DNA of 32,000 nt, taken from the NCBI RefSeq assembly GCF_005696695.1, contig NZ_CP040006.1, positions 270,001 to 302,000 on the forward strand. Reading direction: 5' to 3'. Below, one piece after another: positions 15,363 through 32,000 of the stretch. Positions within the stretch are counted from its first letter, which is position 1. Each line of letters starts with the position of its first letter. The notes below the pieces were generated by a model. It was not told where the DNA came from. It worked only from the letters and a program-made list of their open reading frames with translations, and made no database searches. A program made the translations under genes and the position numbers. Origin of the DNA: Schaalia odontolytica. Its GTDB lineage: Bacteria > Actinomycetota > Actinomycetes > Actinomycetales > Actinomycetaceae.

Positions 15363-15590
15363 GCTGAGCGGAGCCCCGGCATCGTCTGCATGGACGAGGC
15401 CGGGGCTTCGTCATGCCCGGAAAACCGGGCTTTTTGCGGTGTGATGCCCGTCCTTATGGCGCACGTTTAATCGTGAGCAGGGTCGCATGCTGGGACGAAT
15501 TGCGGTCGTGCTTGAAGTTGGTTTGTGTCGATCCTTGTATGCGTGTAACGTTGAGCTTTCACACTGTATGGGTCGGTTTTGCTCGCCAGC

Positions 15591-15599
15591 TGGTAGAAT
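15591..15599 (+). promoter_or_regulatory. extended -10 promoter TGGTAGAAT upstream of carD
   Basis: A TGn+TAGAAT match lies about 38 nt upstream of the ATG at 15637, which itself has an AGGAG SD. Confidence 0.45.
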
Positions 15600-15636
15600 A
15601 GTTGTGCTATCCACGCAAGCACTCAGGAGTCCATCC

Positions 15637-16155
15637 ATGTCGTTTGAAATCGGTCAGACGGTCGTCTACCCGCACCACGGCGCAGCCACGATCGAAGAGG
15701 TCATGACGCGCACCATTCGTGGTGAGGAGCGGACGTACCTGAAGCTGCGTGTGAATCAGGGCGATCTTGAGATTCAGGTCCCCGCCGAGAACGTCGATAT
15801 GGTCGGCGTCCGCGACATCGTCGACGAGGACGGCCTCGAAGAGGTCCTCTCCGTCCTGCGCGCCCCCTACATCGAGGAACCCACCAACTGGTCGCGCCGC
15901 TTCAAGGCGAACCAGGAGAAGATTGCCACCGGCGACATCGTGAAGGTCGCCGAGGTCGTGCGTGACCTGACCCGCCGCGACGACCTGAAGAAGCTGTCCA
16001 CGGGCGAGAAGCGCATGCTGACGAAGGCCCGCGGAATCCTCACCTCCGAGCTGGCCCTGGCGCGCAATATTGAAAAGTCTGCCGCCGCCGAGCGCCTCGA
16101 CGCCGTCCTGGCTGAGGGTCGCATCGAAGTCGAAGAAGATGCCGTCGAAGAGTGA
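15637..16155 (+). CDS. carD: CarD family RNA-polymerase-binding transcriptional regulator
   Basis: N-terminal [20 protein letters not shown] (CarD/CdnL/TRCF RID domain). ATG at 15637 with AGGAG at 15625-15629. The upstream part of the listed ORF (15487-) has no support. Confidence 0.93.
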
Positions 16156-16855
16156 TGCCCGCGCGGTCCTGACGGCCGCAGGCTCCGGCTCTCGCCTCGG
16201 CTGCGAGGGTCCGAAAGCACTCGTTGAACTCTCGGGTCGCCCCCTTGTGTGGTGGGCGGCCCGCGGCCTACGCGCCGGGGGAGTGGGCGCGATCGTCGTG
16301 ACGGCCCCGGCCTCGTCGATCGAGGAATTTCGTAGCGCCCTGTCCGATATTGACGATCTGACAGTCGTCGCCGGCTCTGATCGTTCGCGTCAGGAGTCCG
16401 TGGCCCTCGGCCTGGCCGCGCTTGGCCGGTGCGAGGCGGACACGGTCGTCCTCGTGCACGACGCGGCCCGTCCCCTGACGCCTCCGCAGGTCACCGAGCG
16501 CGTCATCGATGCGGTTGCCGGCGGCGCGGGCGCGGTCATTCCCGTCCTGCCCGTCACCGACACCCTCAAGACCGTGGATGCCTCCGGCGTGGTCGTCGGC
16601 ACGCCGCGCCGCTCCGACATGGTGGCCGTGCAGACACCGCAGGGTTTCCGCTGGGACGTTCTCATTCGTGCGCACGAGGAGGGCGCCTCCCTGGGCGCCG
16701 ACGAGACCCGGGCGGCCACGGACGACGCTGGCCTCGTCGAGGCGATCGGCGGGACCGTGCACACGGTCGCGGGCGACGAGCGCTCCATGAAGGTGACGCG
16801 CCCCCTCGACCTGGCCCTTGCGCAGATCCTCGTCGCCGAGGAGGCGACCGTCTAA
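16139..16855 (+). CDS. ispD: 2-C-methyl-D-erythritol 4-phosphate cytidylyltransferase
   Basis: [19 protein letters not shown] and TLKTV motifs. The first plausible in-frame ATG (16139) overlaps the carD 3' end by 17 nt. The start is uncertain by a few codons. Confidence 0.9.
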
Positions 16856-16893
16856 ACGCACTGCCCGGCTCACGTCGGCAGCGTGGACATACG

Positions 16894-17682
16894 TCAGGGG
16901 GCCGTCAGGAGCGAACGCACGAGCTGCGCGCCCTCCGGCCGACCGAGCTTCGCGCGTTCCTCCGGCTTGTCGACGAAGTAGTCGATGAGGCGCCGCAGCA
17001 GAACGAAGCGCATGGGGGCGCCCGTCATATCAAAGACCAGGCTCTCCTCGAGGCCGTCAATGCAGACGTGCATATTCATGCTCGGGAAGAAGGCAGAATC
17101 GTCCGCGGTGAAACCTTCAATGCGGGGGTGTAGATCCCACGGGATAGGCGTTGGGGAGCTGTCTGTGAGCGGGTGAATCTCCATATGATCGGGCGAGAAC
17201 ACGATGAATGGGCCGCGGTGAATACAAGAGGGGCGCCACGGATTGCTGACGCACAGCATGAAAGATATTGCCGATAGGAGGAATCCGCAGAGAATATGAA
17301 TGATCGCGTGCACGATCGGGACCTGAAGTGCTGGCTCGACGATGAGGGAGATCGGTCCGGCTGCGATTCCGAAAGTGTAGGAGTAGCGACGCACACGAAC
17401 CTGAATAAGGGATGGATAGAGTGCCATTCCTCGTGGCTCCGCGTGCACGACCGGACCCCTGCGACGGCGAATGGACTCCGCAATGCCGATCACGAGGGAT
17501 GCTGGGCACAGCAACAGACAATAGAAAAACAACAAGACGAGCAAGCTGGGCGGCAGAATCCCGCCTAAGAAATACAAGACGATCACCGCGACGGGACAAG
17601 CGGCTGCGATGAAATACCAGTTGAGGGGCTCCATTTGGCGCCCGCCGGCAACGGGAACGCTCAACATTGGGCTTTGCTCCAT
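16894..17682 (-). CDS. orphan integral membrane protein (about 4 TM segments plus a soluble C-terminal domain of about 120 aa), low-GC, function unknown
   Basis: TM-like segments include YFIAAACPVAVIVLYFLGGIL, LLVLLFFYCLLLCPASLVIGI and IVHAIIHILCGFLLSAISFMLCV. The ATG at 17682 (MEQSPM...) has GGAAGGAG 6 nt upstream. My hand count of six 60-nt lines gives mid-50s % G+C, against upper 60s in flanking genes. No family recognised. Confidence 0.65.
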   Translation of the reverse strand: MEQSPMLSVPVAGGRQMEPLNWYFIAAACPVAVIVLYFLGGILPPSLLVLLFFYCLLLCPASLVIGIAESIRRRRGPVVHAEPRGMALYPSLIQVRVRRYSYTFGIAAGPISLIVEPALQVPIVHAIIHILCGFLLSAISFMLCVSNPWRPSCIHRGPFIVFSPDHMEIHPLTDSSPTPIPWDLHPRIEGFTADDSAFFPSMNMHVCIDGLEESLVFDMTGAPMRFVLLRRLIDYFVDKPEERAKLGRPEGAQLVRSLLTAP

Positions 17683-17794
17683 CGTCTTCTCCTTCCAGGG
17701 TGACATCCCAGCATATGACATGCGGTCAGGTCGCGCTGGCGGTTCCCCGGCCTCGTTCCTGGGGCGGCCCGAAGAGAACGTGAGCTACGAAACG

Positions 17795-17803
17795 TGGTAG
17801 TTT
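17795..17803 (+). promoter_or_regulatory. extended -10 promoter TGGTAGTTT upstream of the MFS gene
   Basis: TGn+TAGTTT (TANNNT) lies about 55 nt upstream of the ATG at 17858, which has a GAAGGAG SD. Confidence 0.4.
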
Positions 17804-17857
17804 CACCCTGGACGCACACGCGCCTCCGAGCACTCCCCATCGAAGGAGCCCGATCCC

Positions 17858-19207
17858 ATGAGCACAACGCCCACCACCCCACACCGCGTGATTACGCGCC
17901 AAGTCGTCGACTGGGCGGCCTGGGACTGGGGCAGCGCCGCCTTCAACGCGGTCGCCACGACCTTCGTGTTTACGACCTACCTGACCAGCGACGGCGTCTT
18001 CACCGACTCGGGCACCGCCTCGACGTGGCTGAGTAACGGCATGACGATCGCGGGCCTGTTCATCGCCCTGCTGGCCCCCATCACCGGTCAGCGCGCCGAT
18101 CGACGAGGCCGGGGCGGAGTCTGGCTCGGATGGTTCACGGGCGCGGTCGTCGTCTGTATGCTCGCCATGTACTTCGTGCACCCCGAGTCGGTCCTCGGGC
18201 CCCAGGGCGCCCTCATGCTGGGTATTGCGCTGCTCGGCCTGGGTAACGTGTTCTTCGAGTTCGCCTCGGTGAACTACAACGCGATGCTCAACCACCTGGG
18301 CGAGAAGGAAGACCGCGGCAAGATCTCCGGCTTCGGCTGGGCAGCCGGCTACATCGGCGGCATCGTCCTGCTGCTCATCCTCTACGTCGGCCTCATCGGC
18401 GTCAACCTGCTGAACGTGCCCACCGACGCGCACCTGAACATCCGCATCTCCATGGTGATCGCCGCCCTGTGGCTCGGCGGCTTCGCGATCCCCGTCATCC
18501 TCCACCCGCCGATGCCCAAGAAGGTCCAGACCGGCGGCGACAACGAGTCGATCATCGACTCCTACAAGCTCCTGTGGCGCACCGTGCGCACCCTCAAAAA
18601 CGAGGCCCCGCACACCCTCTTCTTCCTCATCGCCTCCGCCGTCTTCCGCGACGGCCTCGCCGGCGTCTTCACCTTCGGTGCCGTCCTGGCCAAGACCGCC
18701 TTCGGCTTCACCGCCAGCCAGGTCATGATCTTCGCGATCGCCGCGAACATCGTCGCCGGCCTCGCGACCGTCGCCTTCGGATGGGTCGACGACAAGATCG
18801 GCCCGAAGAAGGTCATCATCCTGTCCCTGAGCGCGATGGTCGTCGCCGGCTTCGGCGTCTTCTTCCTGCACGCCCGCGGCCCCGCCGTCTTCTGGAGCCT
18901 CGGCCTGGTCCTGTGCGTCTTCGTCGGCCCCACGCAGTCCGCGTCGCGTTCCTTCCTGTCGCGCATCATCCCCGCGGGCCGCGAGGGCGAGGTCTTCGGC
19001 CTCTACGCGACGACCGGCCGCGCCGTGTCCTTCATGGCTCCCGCCATGTACAGCCTCTTCCTCATGCTCGGCAAGCGTATGACGCCCGCCGGCGAGGACT
19101 ACACCTACTGGGGCATCCTCGGCATCATGCTGATCCTCGGCATCGGCCTGGCCCTCACGATCCCCGTGAAGGCGGACCGCGCGACCCTGGCACACATGGA
19201 GGACTGA
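17858..19207 (+). CDS. MFS transporter, UMF1/Atg22-like family
   Basis: About 12 predicted TM segments. N-terminal VVDWAAWDWGSAAFNAVATTFVFTTYL is characteristic of UMF1-type MFS proteins. Substrate unknown. Confidence 0.85.
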   Translation: MSTTPTTPHRVITRQVVDWAAWDWGSAAFNAVATTFVFTTYLTSDGVFTDSGTASTWLSNGMTIAGLFIALLAPITGQRADRRGRGGVWLGWFTGAVVVCMLAMYFVHPESVLGPQGALMLGIALLGLGNVFFEFASVNYNAMLNHLGEKEDRGKISGFGWAAGYIGGIVLLLILYVGLIGVNLLNVPTDAHLNIRISMVIAALWLGGFAIPVILHPPMPKKVQTGGDNESIIDSYKLLWRTVRTLKNEAPHTLFFLIASAVFRDGLAGVFTFGAVLAKTAFGFTASQVMIFAIAANIVAGLATVAFGWVDDKIGPKKVIILSLSAMVVAGFGVFFLHARGPAVFWSLGLVLCVFVGPTQSASRSFLSRIIPAGREGEVFGLYATTGRAVSFMAPAMYSLFLMLGKRMTPAGEDYTYWGILGIMLILGIGLALTIPVKADRATLAHMED

Positions 19208-19241
19208 GCTCCTCGACGAGGCGCCCGCGCCCGACAACGAT

Positions 19242-19290
19242 ACGTCCCCGACGCAACCGAGTGATCCTCGGGCGTCGGGGACGTTCTTTT
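19242..19290 (+). terminator. intrinsic terminator between the convergent MFS gene and paralog A
   Basis: 13-bp perfect stem ACGTCCCCGACGC / GCGTCGGGGACGT (19242-19254 / 19272-19284) followed by TCTTTT. Confidence 0.7.
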
Positions 19291-19300
19291 GTCGATCCGC

Positions 19301-20728
19301 TTAGTTGGTGTCGGGCGTGAAGGCGACGATCGCGCCGCTGCGAGCCCCGATGAGCAAGTCGTCGTAGACCCACACGAAGGTTGTCAGGTCTTCGAGGCTC
19401 GGCGACACGAACGTCATCGGGTCCTCCGTGTTGAAGAAGAACGTCTGTGTGGGAGCAGACGCCAGGCCCTGGATATAGAGCGCCCTGCCGTCAGCGCTGG
19501 CGCGCATCTGGGCGGCCGACCACGTGTCGGTCGAGAACATCTCGGGGAAGGACTCGCCGGGATTGACGGTGTGAGTGTCGCCCCCGCTGCTGACCATCAG
19601 GGTGTAGCCGTTGGTGTTCTTGGAAAAGACGCGCTCCACCGTTGCCGTCGTCCACGGCGCAATGCCCTGCGTCAAGAAGGCACCGAGGTCTGCAACGCTC
19701 GGGAGCTCGCGGTCTGAGGTTGGGAGCTTGTCGAGCTCCCAGGCGGACCCGAAGGTGCCCACGACATTCCCCGCGGTGTCGTAGCCGACGGTCTCCTCCT
19801 CGCCGGCTACGAGGATGCCGTCGTTCGCCAGCGTGATCCTCGACGAGGTGCGGGCGCTCGCGGAAGGCGCGTCCCCGAGCGTCGTGAGTGCTCCCGTGGC
19901 CGGGTTGATGATCTGCGGAGCGTGGTGGGCCTCGTCGACGGGGACGACCACGGCGGCTTCCGTGCCGGTGCCGATGACGGCCGTCGTGGGCTTCGTGATC
20001 CCCGAGTGGGCGAGGCCCATGCGGCGCTGAGGCGAGGTCTGAGTGGTCCAGAGCCTCGTCCATTCTCCCGAGTCGTGGGACCATCCGGAGCACGAGCTGA
20101 AGGTGTCGCAGGTGACGAGGACGCCGCCCGCCACCCCCATCGGGAGGTCGAAGCCCCAGGGCGCCTGAGTCTGCTCGCCGGTTGACCGATCCACGATGAT
20201 GTCGCTGAGCAGGATCTCTCCCTCGGTTGTGACGGAGGAGGGGAATGCCTCGGCGCGTATACGGGACGGATTCGGCCCGGTCGTGCTCCACTGAACGACC
20301 GGCTCGACGCCCGAGACGTCGTAGGCGGACACAGTGGTCACTGCGTCGGTGCCGCTTCCGTAGGTCAGCGTGTACAGGGTCGAGCCTTCGGTGATCAGCT
20401 GCGCTGGTAGGAGAGAACCGTCCTCGGCAAGGAGCGTCCACGCCCTTGCAACGCCCGAGGCCCACTTGCTCGAGAGCTCGCCCGTGCTGGTCGCCTCTCC
20501 GTGGTAGCCGATCGCATTCAGTCGCCCCTCCCGTTGCGGGCCATGAATGTGCGGTTCGGGTACCCCACGACGGCTGTCAGAGAGGTAAAGGAGGCCGGCG
20601 CCGAGTAAGAATGCGAGAACGATGCCGAAGATCGCGATGATAGCGACACTGATCAGGAAGAGGGGCGTCTTCCGTGAACGTCTGGGCTGGGGGGAGTCAG
20701 TCCCGGACTGGGGGTCGTTGGTGCTCAC
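19301..20728 (-). CDS. paralog family member A: N-in single-pass membrane anchor plus a beta-rich extracytoplasmic domain of about 400 aa, function unknown
   Basis: Colinear motif conservation with 20767-22233, 22283-24184 and 24738-26453. TM segment LFLISVAIIAIFGIVLAFLLGAGLL is preceded by PRRSRK. The GTG at 20728 (VSTNDP, AAGG 8 nt upstream) is preferred by analogy with the M(S/T)ND starts of the other members. The longest ORF starts at the GTG at 20770, overlapping the paralog B stop as GTGA. Confidence 0.85.
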   Translation of the reverse strand: MSTNDPQSGTDSPQPRRSRKTPLFLISVAIIAIFGIVLAFLLGAGLLYLSDSRRGVPEPHIHGPQREGRLNAIGYHGEATSTGELSSKWASGVARAWTLLAEDGSLLPAQLITEGSTLYTLTYGSGTDAVTTVSAYDVSGVEPVVQWSTTGPNPSRIRAEAFPSSVTTEGEILLSDIIVDRSTGEQTQAPWGFDLPMGVAGGVLVTCDTFSSCSGWSHDSGEWTRLWTTQTSPQRRMGLAHSGITKPTTAVIGTGTEAAVVVPVDEAHHAPQIINPATGALTTLGDAPSASARTSSRITLANDGILVAGEEETVGYDTAGNVVGTFGSAWELDKLPTSDRELPSVADLGAFLTQGIAPWTTATVERVFSKNTNGYTLMVSSGGDTHTVNPGESFPEMFSTDTWSAAQMRASADGRALYIQGLASAPTQTFFFNTEDPMTFVSPSLEDLTTFVWVYDDLLIGARSGAIVAFTPDTN

Positions 20729-20766
20729 AAGCTGTGCCTTTTCTGTCGTTGCCCGATACGAGGGAG

Positions 20767-22233
20767 TCACGAGGCCTTCGGGGTGAACGCCACGATGCCG
20801 TCGACCGTCACGCCGATGGCTAGGTCATCGAAGGGCCACGAGAGGTGCTCTGCGTCGCGGAACTCGTCCGATCCGTGTCCCTGCCCGCTCGCGGTGTCGA
20901 AGAAGAACCTGTTGCCCCTGTTGGTGTGATCGACGGACTCGACGTACACGACCGACGTGTCGGCGCTGGCGCGAACCTCGGAGGGCCAAAAAGTGCTGAC
21001 GTAGTGATGCTGGTCGTTATTCCCGGCATCAAGAGTGAAGGGGGGACGCCCGTCGCTCGGCGTCACCGTGAGGCTGAAGGGGGTGCCGGCCGCCGCGTTG
21101 CTTGGGGCTGTGACCGACGCGTTCGACCACGCTGGGCGGGCACCGGCCAGGAAATCTCCTAGTTCGGCCGTGGTCGGCATGCGTCCATCGCGTGTTGGCA
21201 TCCTCTTCATCTGCTTGTAGGTCTGGGTCCCCGTGATGAAGCCATCGGCGTCGTAGGTGACGAAGAAGTCATCGTTGAAAGCCAGGAGCCCATCGCTGGT
21301 GATCACAAAAGACACAACGTTGTTCTGTCTGTCCCTGAAAGGACTCACAGAACCGACGTTCGTGATCTGCCCGGTGTGCGGATCGAGGAGCTGCGCCAGG
21401 TGTGTCTGTGCATCGACGGGCAGGACGACCGCCTGGTGCTCCCCGTTACCGATCACAGGTGTATCGGGGTAGGTGAGCTTATCTAACGCGGACAGGGTGC
21501 CTTTTTGGCTGGCAGTGGCCGTCTCCCACTGGCGCTCCCACGATGAGGCCTCCTGCGTCCAGCCCGAGCAGGCCCGTTTGTGATCGCAGGCCACGACGAT
21601 GCCATCAACGGCCGCGAGTGCTTCCGACCCCTCCCAGGGAGCCGAGGACTGCGCTCCCGACGTCTTGTCGATGACGATGCTGTCGATGAGGAATTGATCC
21701 CTGTAGGACACGAAGGTGGGTCGCCCGAGCGATTTGGGGAGGGGCCCCGTCGTGCGCCACAGCTCGCGCGGCTGCTCGGAAGAGATGTCGAAGGCCGCTG
21801 CAGTGACCTGGTGGGCGGCGGGATTGGGGTCTTCGAAGAGGGCGTACAGGGTGGTGCCCTCCACGGTCGTGAGTGCCCGGGAGCCGTACTTCGTGGAGGG
21901 GAAGGGGATCCTCCATGCCGTTTCGACGCCCGAGGCCCAGGCGGGGGAGATAGATCCCGTGCTCGTGGCGTCCCCTGAGTATCCGACGGTGGGCATCGAG
22001 GTAAATGAACGCTGATCGCCCGGTGTCGAGGGTGAGGGGCTGAGTCGGTGGATACCGATGATAGTGGCGATCGCGACAGCGGCCAGGAAAACCACGAGAA
22101 GGGCAGCCTTCGCGTGGCTCTTCGGACGAGGTTGGGGCGGGCCGGGCTGGGGGTTTGGGGGCGCTCCGCCGGGTGGCACCCACTCCGCGGCATGCGTGGG
22201 AGTATTCATGCCCGTGTGATCGTCATTGGTCAT
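20767..22233 (-). CDS. paralog family member B (488 aa), same architecture, function unknown
   Basis: Pro-rich cytoplasmic tail (PPGGAPPNPQPGPPQPRPK), TM ALLVVFLAAVAIATIIGI, and an ectodomain sharing the family motifs (GYSGDATSTGSISPAWASGV..AW, IDKTSGAQSSAPW, CDHKRACSGW, VRASAD, FFFD, FDDLAIG....GIVAFTP). Confidence 0.85.
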   Translation of the reverse strand: MTNDDHTGMNTPTHAAEWVPPGGAPPNPQPGPPQPRPKSHAKAALLVVFLAAVAIATIIGIHRLSPSPSTPGDQRSFTSMPTVGYSGDATSTGSISPAWASGVETAWRIPFPSTKYGSRALTTVEGTTLYALFEDPNPAAHQVTAAAFDISSEQPRELWRTTGPLPKSLGRPTFVSYRDQFLIDSIVIDKTSGAQSSAPWEGSEALAAVDGIVVACDHKRACSGWTQEASSWERQWETATASQKGTLSALDKLTYPDTPVIGNGEHQAVVLPVDAQTHLAQLLDPHTGQITNVGSVSPFRDRQNNVVSFVITSDGLLAFNDDFFVTYDADGFITGTQTYKQMKRMPTRDGRMPTTAELGDFLAGARPAWSNASVTAPSNAAAGTPFSLTVTPSDGRPPFTLDAGNNDQHHYVSTFWPSEVRASADTSVVYVESVDHTNRGNRFFFDTASGQGHGSDEFRDAEHLSWPFDDLAIGVTVDGIVAFTPKAS

Positions 22234-22239
22234 GAGTAG

Positions 22240-22248
22240 TTTCTATCA
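22240..22248 (-). promoter_or_regulatory. TGATAGAAA motif, 6 nt before the paralog B ATG (candidate leaderless promoter)
   Basis: The minus strand reads GTGATAGAAActactcATGACCAATGAC. The same module occurs at paralogs C and D. Confidence 0.4.
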
Positions 22249-22282
22249 CATGGCAGTGTCGGTGTGATAGACGATCGTGACC

Positions 22283-24184
22283 TCAGGAGGATGCCGGTAC
22301 GAACGCCTTGAGGCCGCTCTCGGTCATGCCGATGATCATGTCGTCGAAGACCCACATGATCTGTTTCGGCGAGTTGAGTTCGGGTGAGGTGTAGATGAAG
22401 CCGTTGACGGTATCGATGAAGAATCTACTCTTGTCCTGGTAGGTGAAGGTATCGGCGTAGAGAACCGAAGCATCCGCGCTGACGCGGACCTCCTTCGGTT
22501 CGAACAAGCACGTGCTGGTCATGTACGGGCTCAACGCTCCGGGGACCGGGGTTGTGTGCGTCGACCCGTCGGAGGTGAGGGTGATCTCGATGGAACAGTC
22601 GTTCTCGCCCACGAGGTCTACCGTGCCCGTCGACCAATTCGCGCGCTGATAGGTCAAGAAGGTCGTCAGGTCCGCGGTGCTCGGGTAGGTACCGTCACGG
22701 CTCACCGCGGGAAAATATACCTGTCCGTTGGTAGTGAACGTGGATTGGAGGGTTCCCTCACTGTCGAAGGCCATTCCCTGTTTCTTGCCGATGTCGACGA
22801 CAATGAAGCCGTCGCTTCCCACCTCTACGTAGTGACCGGTCCCTGGCGTGCCGGGTTCGGGCAGGGTCGTTGCCTCGCCGGTATGGATGTTGATGATCTG
22901 CGGGGATTCCTGATAGCTGGAGGGGACCAGGACGGAGGCGAGTTCACCCGTGCCGGAGCGCGTGGTGCCTGCGGGCGCATAGCCCAAACCCTGGTTACTC
23001 AACCCGTAGGACGTCTGTGGATTCGTTGTCGTCGTCCACAGAGTCGTCCAATCGCCGGAGGCGTGCGTCCATCCGCTGCACGAGGATGTCGTCGAGCAGG
23101 TCACCACGATGCCGTCGGCCTGTGCGAGGGGAAACTCCTTGCCCCACGGGGCCTGTGTCTGCTCGCCGGTCGCCTTGTCGATGACCACGTCGAGGAAAAA
23201 GAGCTGGGTCTCGCTCGACACGAACGCGGGTGTGTACGTCATGATCGCGGAGTTTGCCGTGGGGCCGACCGTGTCCCAGAGGAGAGCTGGGTCCTCCCCG
23301 GACAGGTCGTAGGCCAGAGTCCTGACGGCGGAACCACGCTGGCCCTCGATAGTGTCGTAGCCGGCGATGTAGAGGATCTGGCCGTCGACGAACATATGCG
23401 GTCCGAACTGAGTCATTTCTGCAGGCAGCTCAAGCGTCCACGCGGTGGCCACGCCCGAGGCCCACTGCGGCGATATGGAATGCGTGTTCGTGGCGCTCCC
23501 TCGGTATCCGGGCCAGCGGGGCGGCAGCCCCTCCGCATACTCGCGCACCTCGGAGTCCGCCTGCGTGCTGGCGCTCGACGAGGTCTGCGTGCCCCAAGGT
23601 GTCGATGATGAACCGTCGCGAGTGGACGAGAGAAACGACGCGCCGAAGGCGATCGCGATGAGAGCGACGAACGCGATGAGGAGGTTCGGCTTTTTCTGCC
23701 TCGGGGGCACCGAGGCTCGCGGGGTCCTCGCGGGCGTGGGCTCGAAGGTAATGGTGGGCCTGGGCGCCTGCGCGCCTGTGGGCGCCTTCCGCGGCGAGGC
23801 CGTGGTGGCGGTTGGCCTCGGTGCTTGCTTGCCTGTGGTCCCTTTCTTCGATGAGGCAGTGGCGGCGTTGTGGGAGGCGCTGCTCGTCTGGGCTGCTGTA
23901 GCTTCCGCCGCGGGGGCTGCGTCCGGCTGAGAAATATCGGCCGGCGCGGGCGGCGTGACGGTGAGGAACTGGTCGAGGTCCGGCATCGCCACCTCTGGCA
24001 TCGCCAATTCCTCTAACGCTTCCAACTCTGGCAGCTGCGGAAGTTCGGGCAGATCCGCGACCCCTGGAAGAACCCCAAAGTCCGGGAGCTCAGGAATATC
24101 GACCTGTGACACGTCGTCCCACGCGTCGGAGGAATGAACGCGCGCGGGGTCGTCGGATGTGTGATGCAGGTCGTCGTTGCTCAT
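22283..24184 (-). CDS. paralog family member C (633 aa) with a long acidic/Pro-rich cytoplasmic tail, function unknown
   Basis: N-terminal tail of about 165 aa (DIPELPDFGVLPGVADLPELPQLPELEALEELAMPEVAMPDLDQF, then a GxQAPRPT duplication). TM LLIAFVALIAIAFGASFL. Ectodomain carries the family motifs (GYRGSATNTHSISPQWASGV..AW, IDKATGEQTQAPW, CSTTSSCSGW, VRVSAD, FFID, FDDMIIG....GLKAFVP). Confidence 0.85.
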   Translation of the reverse strand: MSNDDLHHTSDDPARVHSSDAWDDVSQVDIPELPDFGVLPGVADLPELPQLPELEALEELAMPEVAMPDLDQFLTVTPPAPADISQPDAAPAAEATAAQTSSASHNAATASSKKGTTGKQAPRPTATTASPRKAPTGAQAPRPTITFEPTPARTPRASVPPRQKKPNLLIAFVALIAIAFGASFLSSTRDGSSSTPWGTQTSSSASTQADSEVREYAEGLPPRWPGYRGSATNTHSISPQWASGVATAWTLELPAEMTQFGPHMFVDGQILYIAGYDTIEGQRGSAVRTLAYDLSGEDPALLWDTVGPTANSAIMTYTPAFVSSETQLFFLDVVIDKATGEQTQAPWGKEFPLAQADGIVVTCSTTSSCSGWTHASGDWTTLWTTTTNPQTSYGLSNQGLGYAPAGTTRSGTGELASVLVPSSYQESPQIINIHTGEATTLPEPGTPGTGHYVEVGSDGFIVVDIGKKQGMAFDSEGTLQSTFTTNGQVYFPAVSRDGTYPSTADLTTFLTYQRANWSTGTVDLVGENDCSIEITLTSDGSTHTTPVPGALSPYMTSTCLFEPKEVRVSADASVLYADTFTYQDKSRFFIDTVNGFIYTSPELNSPKQIMWVFDDMIIGMTESGLKAFVPASS

Positions 24185-24190
24185 GACACG

Positions 24191-24199
24191 TTTCTACCA
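24191..24199 (-). promoter_or_regulatory. TGGTAGAAA motif, 6 nt before the paralog C ATG (candidate leaderless promoter)
   Basis: The minus strand reads GTGGTAGAAAcgtgtcATGAGCAACGAC. Confidence 0.4.
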
Positions 24200-24227
24200 C
24201 GTTGCGTGCCCGGCGGGCGCTCGCGGG

Positions 24228-24722
24228 TTACTCCTCGGCGCGCACCATGAGGGCGCTCGCCAGCGCGGCCACGCCCTCGCCTCGGCCCGTGAAACCCAGG
24301 TGATCCGAGGTCGTCGCTGACACGGTGACCGTGCCCCCGGCGATCTCGCTCATGACCGCGCAGGCCTCGGGCAGTCGCGCGGCCATACGAGGTCGGTTCC
24401 CCACGACCTGCACGGTCGCGTTACCGAGCACCCAGCCGGCCTCGGCGGTCATGCGGCGAACCTCCTCAAGGAGCGCGCGCCCCGAAGCGCCCGCCCACTC
24501 GGGGCGATCCACGCCGAACACCGTGCCGAGCTCGCCCAGCCCAGTGGCCAGCAGCATCGCGTCGCACAGGGCGTGCGCGGCCACGTCCGCGTCCGAATGC
24601 CCCTCGAGGGGGCGCTCGCCCGGCCACTCCAGGCACGCGACCATCAGAGGACGGGGCGAGTCGGGTGCGGCGAACGCGTGGACGTCGACCGCTTGGCCGA
24701 TGCGGAAAGGCAGATCAGTCAT
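24228..24722 (-). CDS. ispF: 2-C-methyl-D-erythritol 2,4-cyclodiphosphate synthase
   Basis: GQAVDVHAF (Zn ligands Asp/His), [12 protein letters not shown] and [16 protein letters not shown]. Confidence 0.93.
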
Positions 24723-24728
24723 GGAACC

Positions 24729-24734
24729 AGGGTA
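24729..24734 (-). promoter_or_regulatory. -10-like hexamer TACCCT, 6 nt before the ispF ATG (candidate leaderless promoter)
   Basis: The minus strand reads TGAcgcTACCCTggttccATG, inside the 15-nt gap after the paralog D stop. No SD present. Confidence 0.3.
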
Positions 24735-24737
24735 GCG

Positions 24738-26453
24738 TCACGAGGAAGTCGGCGTGAAGGCGATGAGGCCCTCATCCGTCAGCCCGACCAGCAAATCGTC
24801 GTAGACCCACGTGTGGTTCCGTGCCGCCCTCAACTCGGCCGAGGTGTGCGCCTTGTTGTTCGCCATGTCGAAGAAATAGACGGTCTGTTCCTTGTATCCG
24901 ATGTTCAGAATGAACGCAGCGGTTCCGTCGGCGCTCGCACGCGCATGCGTGGGGGAGAAGGAACAGGGCGGACGGGTGCTGGAAGAAACCCCCACCAACC
25001 CCTCTGCGGAGTATTTCGCAACGCCTCCCGAGGTGTGCACCGTGAGGGTTTGGCACCCATCGCCGGTCGCCTCCAGCATGCCCGTCGTCCATGGTGTCCT
25101 GCCCGAGTCGAAGAAAGCATCCCACTCACTCAGAGTCGGCATGCGGCCATCTTCTGCGGGGATAATGTGCTTAAGGCTCGGCCCAAAAGTGCCCAGGGAA
25201 TTGCCGGACATGTCGAATTTTTCGAGCAACGTGGCGTTCTTACGCACGATGAGGCCATCGGAGGCCGGATACAGAGCGTCGTAGGAATAGGAACGGGCAT
25301 GAGCTAAACGCCCCTCTTGTCCAAAGGTTGTCACAACACCCGTGTGTACGTTGACGATCTGTGGGTTCCTGTAGTCATCGACGGGAACCAAGGCGGAAGC
25401 CTCCTCTCCGGTCCCAATCGTGCGCGGCCCATCCCATCGTGAGAGGGAGGAGTTACGGGATTGTTTTCCCGTAATGCTTTGCCACTGCTGTGTCCAGGAA
25501 CCGGATTCCTGCTTCCACCCGGCGCAGGTTTCCATGCCGGAACAGGTCACCAGGATGTCGTCGACCATGGCGATCGGATGGCCATCCTCCCACGGCGCCT
25601 GTGTCTGAATGCCCGTTGATTTCGAGATCAGGATATTTTCGACGGCGAGCCACTCGCCGACGGAGACGATGGAGAAATCTGCCCCCGAGTATGGGATCTC
25701 CATGGACCCGTCGTTGGATGTCCACAGCACGGTGGGCTCGGAGGAGGAGACGTCGATGGCTGCAAGAGAGATGGAATAGGAATGATGGTCCCGGGACACC
25801 ATGTAGAGCGTTGTGCCGTCGGCAAACAGGGTGGTTTCGAATGGCTTGTCAATGCCGCTGCGAGGTTCAGGAACGGTCCAGGCGACGCTCACGCCCGCAG
25901 CCCACTCCGACGAGAGAACGTTCGTGTTCGTGGCCGAACCCTTATAGCCCTGGGAGGCTACCGGCTGTGCGGCGGGCTTCGGAATCGCTGCGATGACACG
26001 CGGCAGCGCGAAAAGGAGAGCGATGACCGCGAGGCTCGCGGCGACGATGAGTGCTGCTTTCTTCCTCTGCAGTCGTACGTATGCCTGATGGCCCGCGATA
26101 CGCTCGGGGTTGGTGCGCGTGCGCGGAGGGCGAGCGCCTTTCCGGGGTGGGCTCGCGGGGGACGAGGCCTCGTCACGAGACGCCGACGATTGGGGTGTCG
26201 CCGTGGTTCGCGTCGCACCCGTGACGAGCGACCCCAGGACTGGCTTCAACGACGAGGTGACGCCCGACTGACCCGTCGCAGTGCCCTCTGACTGTCCGAT
26301 TGTGGGCGCGAAGCGATCGGGGACCGGCGAGGCACCGGTCGAAGACGCGCGGTCTGCGGGCTGCTCGGCGGTGCTCTGCGTCTTCGGCTCGCTTCCGGGC
26401 GCGGGGGTGGAATCCGCGTCCGGGGGAGCCCAGCGAGAAAAGTCGTTGCTCAC
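24738..26453 (-). CDS. paralog family member D (571 aa) with a Ser/Thr/Pro-rich cytoplasmic tail, function unknown
   Basis: Disordered tail of about 125 aa, then RLQRKK followed by TM ALIVAASLAVIALLFAL. Ectodomain carries the family motifs (GYKGSATNTNVLSSEWAAGV..AW, ISKSTGIQTQAPW, CSGMETCAGW, ARASADG, YFFD, VYDDLLVG....GLIAFTP). GTG start. Confidence 0.85.
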   Translation of the reverse strand: MSNDFSRWAPPDADSTPAPGSEPKTQSTAEQPADRASSTGASPVPDRFAPTIGQSEGTATGQSGVTSSLKPVLGSLVTGATRTTATPQSSASRDEASSPASPPRKGARPPRTRTNPERIAGHQAYVRLQRKKAALIVAASLAVIALLFALPRVIAAIPKPAAQPVASQGYKGSATNTNVLSSEWAAGVSVAWTVPEPRSGIDKPFETTLFADGTTLYMVSRDHHSYSISLAAIDVSSSEPTVLWTSNDGSMEIPYSGADFSIVSVGEWLAVENILISKSTGIQTQAPWEDGHPIAMVDDILVTCSGMETCAGWKQESGSWTQQWQSITGKQSRNSSLSRWDGPRTIGTGEEASALVPVDDYRNPQIVNVHTGVVTTFGQEGRLAHARSYSYDALYPASDGLIVRKNATLLEKFDMSGNSLGTFGPSLKHIIPAEDGRMPTLSEWDAFFDSGRTPWTTGMLEATGDGCQTLTVHTSGGVAKYSAEGLVGVSSSTRPPCSFSPTHARASADGTAAFILNIGYKEQTVYFFDMANNKAHTSAELRAARNHTWVYDDLLVGLTDEGLIAFTPTSS

Positions 26454-26459
26454 CCCTCG

Positions 26460-26468
26460 TTTCTACCA
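26460..26468 (-). promoter_or_regulatory. TGGTAGAAA motif, 6 nt before the paralog D GTG (candidate leaderless promoter)
   Basis: The minus strand reads GTGGTAGAAAcgagggGTGAGCAACGAC. Confidence 0.4.
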
Positions 26469-26564
26469 CACGCGCGCCTGCACTCTACGCTCATCTCTGG
26501 CCCCGGCCTCGTCCATCCGTGTGACGAGGTGCGGGCGCCCTCGCAGGCCACGCCCCCTCTCCGA

Positions 26565-26570
26565 TAGGAT
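26565..26570 (+). promoter_or_regulatory. -10-like hexamer TAGGAT, 6 nt before the thrC GTG (candidate leaderless promoter)
   Basis: Sequence is cgaTAGGATcgactcGTG. No SD. Confidence 0.4.
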
Positions 26571-26576
26571 CGACTC

Positions 26577-28034
26577 GTGCGCTACATTTCGACCCGACGC
26601 GGCCCCAACACGCCCACCCGTTCCTTCAGTGACATCCTCCTGGAAGGCCTCGCCCCCGACGGCGGCCTCTACCTGCCCGAGGAATACCCGACGCTGTCTC
26701 GCTCCGACCTGGACGAGCTGCGCATCGTCCTGCGCGAGGACGGCTACGCGGCCATGGCCGCCGGCATTATCTCCCTCTTCGTCGACGACATCCCGGCGAA
26801 CGACCTGAGCGCGATCACGGCCCGTGCCTACCGCACCCCCGCCTTCTCCGACCCCCAGATCGTCCCCGTCGACGCCCTGGAGGGCACCGACCTGCACCTC
26901 GCCCACCTGTCGAACGGCCCCACGGCCGCCTTCAAGGACATGGCGATGCAGCTCCTCGGTGAGCTCTTCGAATACGAGCTCACTCGCCGCGGCGACTGGC
27001 TCACCATCGTCGGCGCCACCTCCGGCGACACCGGCTCCTCCGCCGAGTACGCGCTGCGCGGCCGACGCGGCCTCTCCGTCGTCATGCTCACCCCCGCCGG
27101 CCGCATGACCGCCTTCCAGCGCGCCCAAATGTTCTCCCTCCTCGACGAGAACATCGTCAACGTCGCCGTCGACGGTGTCTTCGACGACTGTCAGGACCTC
27201 GTCAAGGCCGTCAACATGGACGCTGACTTCAAGGCCACCTGGCACGTGGGCGCCGTCAACTCCATCAACTGGGCGCGCCTGCTCGCCCAGGTCTGCTACT
27301 ACGTCGCCACCTGGCTGCGCGTCACCGAGGAAGGGGCCGACGCCTCGTCGAAGGTCAGTGTCGTCGTGCCCTCGGGCAACTTCGGCAACGTGTGCGCCGC
27401 CCACATCGCCCGCCAGATGGGCGTGCCGCTGGGAACCCTCGTCGTCGCCACGAACGAGAACGACGTCCTCGACGAGTTCTTCCGCACCGGCGTCTACCGC
27501 CCCCGCTCCTCCGCGGACACGCTGGCCACCTCCAGCCCGTCCATGGACATCTCCAAGGCCTCGAACTTCGAGCGCTTCATCTTCGACCTCATGGGCCGCG
27601 ACGGGGACGCCACCCGCGCCCTCTTCGACGTGGCGCTCGCCCGCGACGGCTACTTCGACCTGTCCGGCACTCCCGAGTTCGCGGCCCTGCGCGACACCTA
27701 CGGCTTCATCTCCGGCACCTCCTCGCACGCGGATCGCCTCGCCGAGATCGCGCGCACGGAGAAGGAAAGCGGCTACCTCCTCGACCCGCACACGGCCGAC
27801 GGCGTGCACGTCGCCCGCGCCGTGCGCCCGCAGATCGAGGGCCCGCTCGTCGTCATGGAGACCGCGCTGCCCGTCAAGTTCGCCGACACGATCCTCGAGG
27901 CCACCGGCCACCTCCCGCCTGTGCCCAAGCGCTTCGAAGGCATCGAAGGCCGCGAAGAGCGCGTCACGCCCCTCGCCAACTCCGTTGAGGACCTCAAGGC
28001 GCTCATTCGCGAGCGCGTGCGCCCCGGCGCCTGA
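26577..28034 (+). CDS. thrC: threonine synthase (long form)
   Basis: N-terminal YISTRRG...[21 protein letters not shown]-lysine motif [12 protein letters not shown] and SGDTGSSA. Confidence 0.93.
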
Positions 28035-28161
28035 GTTTTCTTTCGCTCGACGAGGCCCGAGCCCCCACCAGCGAAGCCGCACCGTTTCGCCTGACGGGGC
28101 CCGGGCCTCGTTACATACTCCCGGGGAGTGCCCGTTTCCCTCACCCCCTCGCCCCGCCAGG

Positions 28162-28167
28162 TAGGAT
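28162..28167 (+). promoter_or_regulatory. -10-like hexamer TAGGAT, 7 nt before the cysS ATG (candidate leaderless promoter)
   Basis: Sequence is ggTAGGATtggtgccATG. No SD. Confidence 0.4.
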
Positions 28168-28174
28168 TGGTGCC

Positions 28175-29632
<1,458 letters not shown>

Positions 29633-31347: not shown

Positions 31348-32000
31348 ATGGCCTCACACAGCGGGCGCCCCGGCGCCATCCGTAAGAAGGGCACCAAGAA
31401 GGGCGCGCAGGTCGGCACCGGCGGCCACTCGCGCCGCCGCCTCGAAGGCAAGGGCCCGACCCCCAAGGCCGAGGATCGCACCTACCATCCCGCCCACAAG
31501 CGCAAGGTCAAGCGCGAGGCCCGCGAGGCCCAGGAGGCCGCGATCGCGCGCGCCCGCGCCAAGTCGTCGATCCGCGTCAAGCCCGGCCACGAGCTGATCG
31601 CCGGCCGTAACCCGGTCGCCGAGGCCGCCCGCGCCTCGGTCCCGATCGAGCGCGTATTCGTCCTCGACAACGTGAAGGACGACCGCGTGGAGGAGGTTGT
31701 GCGCCTCGCCTCGGCCATGGGCGCCCCCGTTTACGAGGTCACCCGCCGCGACCTGGATGTCGCGACCGACGGTGCCGTCCACCAGGGCGTCGCCATCGAG
31801 GTGCGCGGCTACGAGTACGCCGATGCCTCGGATCTGATCGCGGGCTCTCTGCAGCAGCTGGGCCACCCGCTCCTCGTCGCCCTCGATCAGGTGACGGACC
31901 CCCACAACCTGGGCGCTGTCCTGCGTAGTGCGGGCGCGTTCGGTGCGGACGGCGTCATCATCCCCGAGCGTCGTAGCGCGGGCGTCAACACGACCGCATG
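31348..32000 (+). CDS. rlmB: 23S rRNA (guanosine-2'-O)-methyltransferase RlmB / TrmH-family SpoU methyltransferase, 3'-truncated by the window edge
   Basis: Absent from the ORF track because there is no stop before nt 32000. ATG at 31348 with GAGGAG 5 nt upstream. My translation gives a basic N-terminal tail (GRPGAIRKKGTKKG...), then an L30e-like substrate-binding domain (ELIAGRNPVAEA...) and the start of the SpoU domain (LVALDQVTDPHNLGAVLRSAGAFGADGVIIPERR). Confidence 0.85.
   Translation, partial: MASHSGRPGAIRKKGTKKGAQVGTGGHSRRRLEGKGPTPKAEDRTYHPAHKRKVKREAREAQEAAIARARAKSSIRVKPGHELIAGRNPVAEAARASVPIERVFVLDNVKDDRVEEVVRLASAMGAPVYEVTRRDLDVATDGAVHQGVAIEVRGYEYADASDLIAGSLQQLGHPLLVALDQVTDPHNLGAVLRSAGAFGADGVIIPERRSAGVNTTA

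Follow-up and report, generated by a model that had tools for sequence, protein, structure and literature searches.

The interval 19301-26453 of the window, by which we mean the whole 32,000-nucleotide stretch of Schaalia odontolytica DNA analysed here (contig NZ_CP040006.1, positions 270,001 to 302,000), contains five minus-strand genes in the open reading frame (ORF) list, in the order D, ispF, C, B and A. Four of them belong, by their mutual similarity, to one family of membrane-anchored proteins with a predicted beta-propeller ectodomain and are referred to below as the array. D occupies 24738-26453 and encodes 571 amino acids (aa) with a Ser/Thr/Pro-rich tail of 132 aa, C occupies 22283-24184 (633 aa, with an acidic, Pro-rich cytoplasmic tail of 167 aa) and B, as defined from the ORF list and the alignment, 20767-22233 (488 aa). 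The initial annotation had reported four same-strand ORFs at these coordinates, which was correct, but it had overlooked ispF between C and D (24228-24722, 164 aa, 2-C-methyl-D-erythritol 2,4-cyclodiphosphate synthase). With matches to Pfam YgbB at 1.9e-45 and to TIGR00151 above cutoff, ispF is unambiguously a conserved housekeeping gene inside the array and no member of the propeller family. The genes are separated by 15 bp (D and ispF), 43 bp (ispF and C) and 49 bp (C and B).

Paralog A can be read from two start codons. A 489-aa form (19301-20770, minus strand) begins at GTG 20770 and overlaps the stop codon of B by 4 bp (GTGA), and a 475-aa form (19301-20728, minus strand) begins at GTG 20728. 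The 475-aa form is more likely to be real because a Shine-Dalgarno sequence, AGAAAAGG, precedes GTG 20728, because this start restores the conserved N-terminus M-S-T-N-D of the family, and because nearly all orthologues of A are called at 474-475 aa.

Pairwise BLASTP comparisons of A, B, C and D gave 31-35% identity over 420-500 residues with E values from 1e-54 to 1e-71, in agreement with the divergence of about one-third identity that had been estimated by eye. This similarity is far beyond chance and argues that the four are true paralogs. In an alignment of the whole ectodomains B, C and D are 33-38% identical to A, with about 70 invariant columns. The shared motifs listed in the initial annotation were found to be accurate (for example GY.G.AT.T...S..WA.GV..AW, TLY, APW, VTC.....CSGW and RASAD), as was the C-terminal motif W.(Y/F)DD...G....G(I/L).AF(T/V)P, which reaches to within 3 residues of the stop codon. 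The common architecture it had proposed, a disordered tail followed by a basic cluster, one transmembrane helix and an ectodomain of about 405 aa, is present in all four proteins. The cytoplasmic tails of A, B, C and D measure 22, 42, 167 and 132 aa and are of low complexity, rich in Pro, Ser, Thr and Ala. They end in 3-4 Lys/Arg residues within 12 residues ahead of a strong hydrophobic segment of 19-27 aa, the only one detected by hydropathy in each protein. The predicted transmembrane helices, all encoded on the minus strand, lie at 20582-20662 in A (residues 23-49 of the 475-aa form, after RRSRK, hydropathy maximum 3.09), 22039-22107 in B (residues 43-65, after RPKSHAK), 23615-23683 in C (residues 168-190, after RQKK) and 25989-26057 in D (residues 133-155, after RLQRKK).

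A linker of roughly 10-50 residues leads from the transmembrane helix to the ectodomain, which in A is encoded at 19304-20527 (408 aa, from the AlphaFold2 beta-propeller prediction) and, from the alignment, at 20770-22002 in B, 22286-23527 in C and 24741-25967 in D, again on the minus strand. The cysteines of all four paralogs are confined to the ectodomain. One pair, C-x5-C, is kept without exception in 100 family members; a second pair is present in C and D and not in A and B. From the positive-inside charge distribution together with the cysteine pattern we infer a type II topology, with the N-terminus inside and the C-terminus outside. As a side observation, residues 26-92 of the C tail form an acidic repetitive stretch, IPELPDFGVLPGVADLPELPQLPELEALEELAMPEVAMPDLDQF, with a weak PHROGs match to phrog_10969 of unknown function (E 7.6e-4), which is probably an effect of composition. 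In a distant metagenomic member, P0296 (581 aa, E 1.3e-14), residues 38-96 form a Leucine-Rich-Repeat-Variant domain (PF25591, E 1.8e-21) at the position taken by the disordered tail in the window proteins. This hints that the cytoplasmic end of the family can be a protein-interaction module.

The ectodomain of A was modelled with AlphaFold2 from an alignment of 27 sequences. The model has a mean predicted local distance difference test score (pLDDT) of 77.6 and a predicted template modelling score of 0.81, and it is almost all beta with about 30 strands, so that the single-pass proteins with a beta-rich ectodomain described in the initial annotation are borne out. A Foldseek search of the PDB with this model returned 514 matches at E<=1e-3, and all 50 of those listed are propellers. 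The best is BamB (4hdj, E 1.5e-9; also 3p1l and 8orr, E about 1e-9; template modelling scores 0.47-0.53), followed by WD40 proteins, the eight-bladed designer protein Tako8 and Rv3035 of M. thermoresistibile (E 1.2e-7, score 0.46); against viral structures only generic propellers were found. The ectodomain is thus predicted to be a beta-propeller, and since the template modelling scores are near 0.5 it appears to have no close structural relative. A strand count of about 30-32 and the matches to BamB, Tako8 and Rv3035 fit eight blades, and seven-bladed WD40 proteins score similarly; the propeller is likely eight-bladed.

At the sequence level the four paralogs matched no family in Pfam, NCBIfam, PADLOC, PHROGs or the PDB sequences, and 34 diverse members (down to 16% identity) matched none in Pfam, NCBIfam, PADLOC or PHROGs, in line with the earlier view that the domain belongs to no curated family. 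Hidden Markov models of the PQQ family (PQQ, PQQ_2, PQQ_3) gave no match at E<=1 to the four paralogs or the 34 members, and in the 34 members no other Pfam model scored as well as E = 1 either. Profiles built from 4 and from 34 sequences produced marginal, blade-level matches only among PDB sequences. With the 34-sequence profile these were single blades of the PQQ-like designer protein 'Cake' (about 1e-3) and of PQQ_3 or PQQ-kinase propellers (0.1-0.4). The resemblance to PQQ/BamB-type propellers suggested in the initial annotation is therefore supported by Foldseek at the level of the fold, and weakly, by blade matches with E about 1e-3, at the level of sequence. Across distant members the invariant positions are Gly, Trp, Cys and Pro residues and a single Asp-Gly turn, and the alignment of these members revealed no conserved polar constellation of the kind expected of an active site. 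For this reason we read the propeller as a binding module or scaffold rather than an enzyme. We also considered the strings SADG and TSDG as Asp-boxes of the sialidase/BNR type, and on inspection rejected this because their spacing differs from S-x-D-x-G-x-T-W.

The window was then taken as reference for a comparison with 30 genome loci of the same species group. The products of cysS, thrC, ispF, the neighbouring MFS transporter gene, ispD and carD are 93-100% identical in amino acid sequence to those of the window, and the propellers across the same loci are 33-93% identical. Copy number ranges from a remnant (L020) or two (L024) up to at least ten (L008) and is typically four to five, with fragments in some loci, including isolate genomes such as L021. 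At 50% identity, 100 complete ectodomains group into 14 clusters, and a cut at 55%, used for naming, yields 20 sequence types. Four positional classes could be distinguished in the order thrC, D-like, ispF, C-like, B-like, A-like and MFS, and differing sequence types occupy the same slot in different loci. Against the window the flanking genes have nonsynonymous divergence (dN) of 0.00-0.03 and synonymous divergence (dS) of 0.08-0.25, with dN/dS about 0.03-0.1; propellers of the same type have dN 0.03-0.27 and dS 0.08-0.6, with dN/dS about 0.3-0.45, and their pooled within-type ratio of nonsynonymous to synonymous polymorphism (pN/pS) is 0.41. By these estimates the constraint on the array is about ten-fold weaker than that on the flanking genes. 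The initial annotation had taken the paralogs to be old duplicates kept intact by selection on each copy; as stated, this is not supported by the comparison of more than 30 loci, which showed dynamic copy number, replacement of one type by another at the same slot, fragments and losses, and weak constraint.

Nucleotide identity between the window and related loci drops and recovers exactly at gene ends. One break lies within the 3' end of A, which is conserved (about 19510-19520); two more coincide with the 5' boxes described below, that of B (about 22214, against L016) and that of D (about 26449). Because the breaks fall at gene ends, they indicate cassette replacement by homologous recombination.

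Nearly all B-, C- and D-class genes in every locus begin with the same arrangement, which the initial annotation had overlooked, namely a box TGTGRTAGAAAC, 5 nt, ATG or GTG, and then AGC AAC GAC. The window has exactly three copies of the box, against 0.1 expected by chance, each on the minus strand and 5 nt ahead of a start codon: TGTGATAGAAAC at 22239-22250 before the ATG of B, CGTGGTAGAAAC at 24190-24201 before the ATG of C, and TGTGGTAGAAAC at 26459-26470 before the GTG of D, in the divergent intergenic region between thrC and D. Counting all loci, 56 of 63 occurrences stand at propeller starts and the remainder at remnants or incomplete copies; S. georgiae lacks the box. A TANNNT hexamer 6-7 nt before the start codon is the classical leaderless arrangement of actinobacteria. 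The TAGAAA hexamer of the box lies 6 nt from the start codon, and the same kind of spacing is found in the window at thrC (TAGGAT, 6 nt, GTG; 26560-26579), cysS (TAGGAT, 7 nt, ATG; 28157-28177) and ispF (TACCCT, 6 nt, ATG; 24722-24740, minus strand). The MFS gene, an ORF of 262 aa and A have Shine-Dalgarno sequences instead. Leaderless genes seem to be widely used by this organism. Since its geometry equals that of thrC, cysS and ispF, the box is a candidate extended -10 (TGn) promoter from which leaderless transcripts would start, one per cassette; the box of B is a candidate recombination junction as well.

An extracytoplasmic function (ECF)-type promoter (GAAAC-N16-CGAC) was also considered and rejected, as the downstream 'CGAC' shows synonymous changes (GAC/GAT) that leave the peptide N-D-D intact, and as codon-like substitution begins directly after the ATG. 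The N-terminal peptide M-S/T-N-D-D is preserved at the protein level through synonymous codon changes. It is probably functional too because of this conservation. We also noted three boxes, TGTGATAGAAAC, that stand alone without a propeller gene (L006 at about 13219, L017 at about 12173 and L023 at about 7623). Two of these follow the last cassette and have no start codon; the third lies between thrC and ispF in a strain without a D-class gene and is followed by GTG AGT AGC. They look like scars of deleted cassettes.

The array lies in an otherwise conventional neighbourhood. carD, ispD, ispF and cysS usually form one block in actinobacteria. Here about 11 kb, comprising the 262-aa family, the MFS gene, the propeller array and thrC, interrupt this block (window 15487-29632), and ispF is on the strand of the array, opposite to ispD. 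carD (15487-16155) and ispD (16070-16855) are followed by the 262-aa ORF (16894-17682, minus strand), which lies between ispD and the MFS gene, and the array is flanked on the A side by the Atg22/MFS transporter gene (17858-19207). On the D side thrC (26577-28034) is divergent from D, cysS (28175-29632) lies beyond it, and a DUF1697 gene and a SpoU-type methylase gene (31348-32000, plus strand, running off the end of the window) follow. The GC content of the array is 0.60-0.65, against about 0.70 in the flanks. The listed ispD ORF (TTG 16070) overlaps carD by 86 nt; as the IspD proteins of relatives are called at 238 aa, the real start is probably further downstream.

The 262-aa protein has four predicted transmembrane helices and a C-terminal beta/alpha domain, and its gene is preceded by a strong Shine-Dalgarno sequence, GGAAGGAG, in a stretch of low GC content (0.60). 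Related loci hold 0-3 copies at 25-99% identity, and 112 homologues, all 'hypothetical', were found among 5.8 billion proteins; no match was obtained in Pfam, PADLOC or PHROGs. Its AlphaFold2 model (pLDDT 49) was unusable and was not used. By this distribution it is a second clade-restricted variable family. Further along, in S. georgiae and Actinomyces sp. HMSC062G12, a cluster of WXG100 genes (Esx substrates) lies just beyond the SpoU-type rRNA methylase, and in S. georgiae three diverged copies of a 180-aa protein are scattered near it; the stretches concerned in the two species are L036 1-1781, 2963-3526 and 4466-5005 and L038 833-1123. The 180-aa proteins might be toxin/immunity-like material, and given the WXG100 clusters and these copies the larger surrounding region might be a hotspot of conflict genes.

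An exhaustive profile search of 1.84 billion representatives returned only 153 proteins at E<=1e-3, of which 35 reached E<=1e-30. All named relatives are Schaalia/Pauljensenia or Actinomyces proteins annotated as 'hypothetical', apart from a few records that are obviously mislabelled. S. georgiae has at least six copies, 24-32% identical to those of the window, at the same site directly after cysS-thrC, and Actinomyces sp. HMSC062G12 has two, one on either side of ispF. The remotest homologues occur singly, in other Actinomycetaceae and in housekeeping contexts unrelated to this one. Given the named relatives, this distribution and the array at the same site in S. georgiae, the family appears to be specific to the Actinomycetaceae and the array at this site to be old within Schaalia. 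An origin from mobile elements was rejected, as tblastn against phage and plasmid collections gave no match. The mislabelled records (L016, L017 and L029, and proteins P0019, P0164, P0211 and P0484) show the Schaalia locus with housekeeping genes 98-100% identical under the names Xylanimonas cellulosilytica 352_XCEL, Sanguibacter keddieii 250_SKED, Cellulomonas flavigena, Kytococcus sedentarius and Thermobifida sp., and are almost certainly mislabelled assemblies. In one Actinomycetaceae metagenome-assembled genome (L040, 18454-21491) about 7 kb separate the distant single-copy homologue from a large RHS/YD-repeat protein that has small ORFs downstream, a proximity that may be coincidence.

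What could such an array do? We suggest, at about an even chance, that it supplies polymorphic binding modules whose role is defensive or directed at antagonists. Its products would be lineage-specific type II proteins, each holding a disulfide-containing propeller just outside the cytoplasmic membrane, near its outer face. They would be encoded as cassettes at a fixed site running from thrC through the D-class genes, ispF and the C-, B- and A-class genes to the MFS transporter, where old, diverged types could be gained, lost and exchanged by homologous recombination through the 5' box and the 3' coding end. Since the box geometry matches that of leaderless -10 promoters in the window, each B-, C- or D-class cassette may bring its own, similarly regulated promoter in the form of the TGTGRTAGAAAC-N5-start box, and A-class genes would be translationally coupled to B. 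The propellers themselves would bind variable ligands of antagonists, such as Saccharibacteria epibionts, phages, or secreted toxins or enzymes, and the cassette repertoire of a strain would shape which antagonists are resisted or attracted. We favour such a conflict role over envelope upkeep because single classes are dispensable, copy number changes, old types are swapped, constraint is weaker and the fold appears to be membrane-proximal and non-catalytic, traits that in combination are typical of genes dealing with shifting outside partners. The initial annotation had proposed an undescribed cell-envelope system; this remains plausible, and the evolutionary pattern favours a conflict or variable-surface role over envelope construction.

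Cultivated Saccharibacteria (TM7) have their model hosts in Schaalia odontolytica, an oral bacterium of a genus formerly placed in Actinomyces, and in its relatives. A 2026 preprint (Wang et al.) describes in S. odontolytica F0309 an epibiont-induced four-gene cluster encoding proteins that are hypervariable and anchored at the surface (OBNOAD_00248-00251), which is induced by Saccharibacteria (TM7-008) through the EsrA1 threat-sensing pathway, in a response that also includes an Esx system and wall-polysaccharide genes. Our array shares with that cluster its hypervariability between strains and its anchoring at the surface or membrane, here by a transmembrane helix, and it is the obvious candidate in this lineage for a cluster of that description. 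The F0309 label is absent among the names of the members of the family clusters, and the location in the F0310 scaffold gives no information on whether the two are identical. More tentatively, we speculate that the array is the hypervariable cluster of the Esr1 epibiont-response regulon and that its cassettes set which Saccharibacteria or phages can exploit a strain, acting as membrane-proximal binders that intercept attachment or feeding structures or effectors of the epibionts, with the TGTGRTAGAAAC box allowing the cassettes to be switched on together. Literature on TM7x/XH001 receptors and on hypervariable genes and Saccharibacteria host range yielded nothing on this family.

Several observations weigh against an antagonist-facing role. 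The linker of 10-50 residues would keep the propeller near the membrane beneath the wall, where it is not obviously exposed to large partners, and the neighbouring genes in the window include none for toxins, phages or defence, nor did PADLOC return a match. The -10-like hexamer TAGAAA of the box lacks the usually conserved final T; that this makes the box activator-dependent is speculation. That the array is the OBNOAD_00248-00251 cluster is plausible, and we consider the matter roughly evenly balanced. Positive selection was looked for and is not claimed: no sliding window of 15 codons exceeded a pN/pS of 0.68, and a crude parsimony count gave dN>dS at p<0.05 in 1 of 393 sites, with 180 under purifying selection. 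The variability could therefore partly reflect relaxed constraint on dispensable genes. Since no site-wise positive selection was found, it is best described as old functional types being kept, lost and swapped under weaker constraint, rather than as a demonstrated arms race by point mutation. Variation is highest (2.3-2.6 bits, against 1.7-1.8 bits in other loops and in strands) in loops that are provisionally put on one face, an assignment taken from the DSSP string only and not from coordinates. The most conserved part is the N-terminal segment GY.G.AT.T...W..G...AW before the first blade (1.0 bit).

This conserved segment could be a cavity plug as in Rv3035, and it is one of the points in favour of a different reading, in which the propellers are housekeeping scaffolds for envelope assembly of the Rv3035/BamB/LpqB kind that dock wall-polymer enzymes, with the paralogs serving strain-specific wall polysaccharide pathways. 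Foldseek matches both BamB and Rv3035, the latter a periplasmic eight-bladed scaffold (PMC13041763); distant single-copy homologues sit in housekeeping neighbourhoods of other Actinomycetaceae, and the array is interleaved with the essential ispF. A housekeeping scaffold would hardly vary from 1 to 10 copies, however, with whole classes missing in three loci (L007, L023 and L024) and fragments only in two more (L020 and L021), nor have its types swapped between near-identical backgrounds and its pN/pS raised about ten-fold above the flanks. As there is moreover no sequence relation to Rv3035 or BamB, and no polysaccharide gene is adjacent in the window, we think this reading unlikely. Placed on an equally low footing is a narrower version of the antagonist-facing role, an orphan immunity island in which each propeller blocks one family of extracytoplasmic toxins or lytic enzymes, for example Esx/LXG-type effectors, bacteriocins or epibiont hydrolases. 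Variable-copy arrays of diverged paralogs in a conserved context, an extracytoplasmic position close to the membrane and a non-enzymatic pattern of conservation are all consistent with it, as are the WXG100 clusters that S. georgiae and Actinomyces sp. HMSC062G12 have a few kb past cysS and the SpoU methylase. Precedents exist in the membrane-anchored immunity proteins of type VII secretion systems (T7SS; TipC) and in the propeller inhibitor BLIP-II. Yet no cognate toxin gene lies beside any cassette in the window or in 40 loci, a propeller of 400 aa is large for an immunity protein, and no immunity family of PADLOC or Pfam was matched.

The tails invite another possibility, that of transmembrane sensors whose propeller detects an external cue and whose tail, with its conserved M-S-N-D-D, relays it by phosphorylation and FHA binding or by sequestering a regulator. 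The tails are rich in Ser, Thr and Pro, the N-terminal pentapeptide is conserved across classes despite synonymous codon variation, P0296 has an LRV_2 domain in place of the tail, and propeller sensors (EsrA) as well as signalling by Thr phosphorylation and FHA domains exist in Schaalia. The tails contain no recognisable domain, though, differ in length (22 to about 220 aa) and show almost no conservation from one class to another. Genes for kinases, FHA proteins or sigma/anti-sigma factors are not among the window neighbours, and many redundant, swappable copies would be unusual for sensors; we regard this as quite improbable. Adhesion or kin recognition seems to us the most doubtful explanation of all. 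The propellers would then mediate homotypic or heterotypic recognition between cells, as in plaque coaggregation or the distinction of self from non-self, with a logic like that of the polymorphic TraA of myxobacteria. That one locus between conserved flanks keeps many allelic types of deep divergence, in an organism that inhabits dense oral biofilm, would suit this, but the short linkers put the domain under the peptidoglycan, poorly placed for contact between cells; Gram-positive adhesins are normally sortase-anchored or fibrillar, and no diversifying selection was detected at the level of sites.

If the propellers do act as polymorphic, antagonist-facing binding modules, the array would be a concrete and testable candidate for the narrow, strain-level host range of epibionts and for host resistance to them. 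The locus is fixed and easily typed, with coordinates, sequence classes, cassette junctions and a promoter-like box defined, and its cassette content can be correlated with host-range tables of Saccharibacteria. It also adds an uncatalogued propeller family for which Pfam has no model, and an example of cassette-style diversification within a rigid housekeeping block (carD-ispD...ispF-cysS).

Among known systems the nearest in fold are BamB and the other PQQ-like eight-bladed propellers of the Beta_propeller clan, which gave the best Foldseek matches. One blade of the array (ASDG...YD..G) weakly matches the 'Cake' designs and PQQ_3 proteins (E 1e-3 to 0.4), and by inspection the strings AYDVSG.....W and VDRSTG......W resemble what we take to be the tryptophan-docking motif of the PQQ-like class. 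The catalytic and PQQ- or metal-binding residues of PQQ-dependent dehydrogenases are not conserved in the family, which has no sequence match to these enzymes. The array also differs from BamB in its anchor, an N-terminal transmembrane helix with a long cytoplasmic tail and no lipoprotein signal: tails of 22-167 aa precede a helix that looks non-cleavable, and a lipobox with its N-terminal Cys is lacking. Actinomycetaceae are monoderm and have no BAM machinery. Unlike BamB and the PQQ-like proteins, moreover, the present family is multi-copy and hypervariable.

To our knowledge the Actinomycetaceae have no arabinan synthesis pathway, the process in which Rv3035 takes part. Rv3035 (PDB 9p3g) is likewise an actinobacterial, extracytoplasmic eight-bladed propeller with disulfides (Foldseek E 1.2e-7, score 0.46), and in it too the blades follow an N-terminal segment that is conserved, and its function is of the scaffold type, with catalysis not proven (PMC13041763). 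It is the partner of FecB, and the periplasmic FecB-Rv3035 complex supports arabinofuranosyltransferase activity (PMC13041763). The PDB sequence profile searches gave no match to 9p3g at E<=10, and the window holds no FecB-like gene. Whereas Rv3035 is single-copy, essential and conserved, the array is partly dispensable, varies in copy number and has cytoplasmic tails.

The F0309 cluster of the preprint resembles the array in being of the same genus and in consisting of four genes for hypervariable, surface-anchored proteins. Its four locus tags are consecutive, whereas in the window ispF interrupts the array, so that identity of the two would need either a strain in which all four copies stand to one side of ispF (L014, L016 and L019 are examples) or a range of tags that includes ispF. 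T7SS immunity arrays and silent/expressed surface-antigen cassettes share with the array tandem diverged paralogs, changes in copy number and exchange through cassette ends. They differ in that the Schaalia array has no adjacent toxin, invertase, recombinase or silent-copy arrangement; its neighbours in the window and in more than 30 loci are thrC, cysS, ispF, the MFS transporter gene, ispD and carD, with no adjacent toxin gene, and WXG100 genes lie several kb away in two species only. In addition each B-, C- or D-class cassette of Schaalia appears to carry its own promoter box, and the fold is unrelated to known immunity families. In its workings the family resembles a propeller scaffold tethered to the membrane. 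It does not belong to the BamB, PQQ-enzyme or Rv3035 families, since model and sequence comparisons with them gave no match, its anchor is different and the catalytic residues are missing. Extracytoplasmic propellers are known as a kind; what is new is the family itself, its restriction to the Actinomycetaceae and the evolution of a cassette array inside a housekeeping block.

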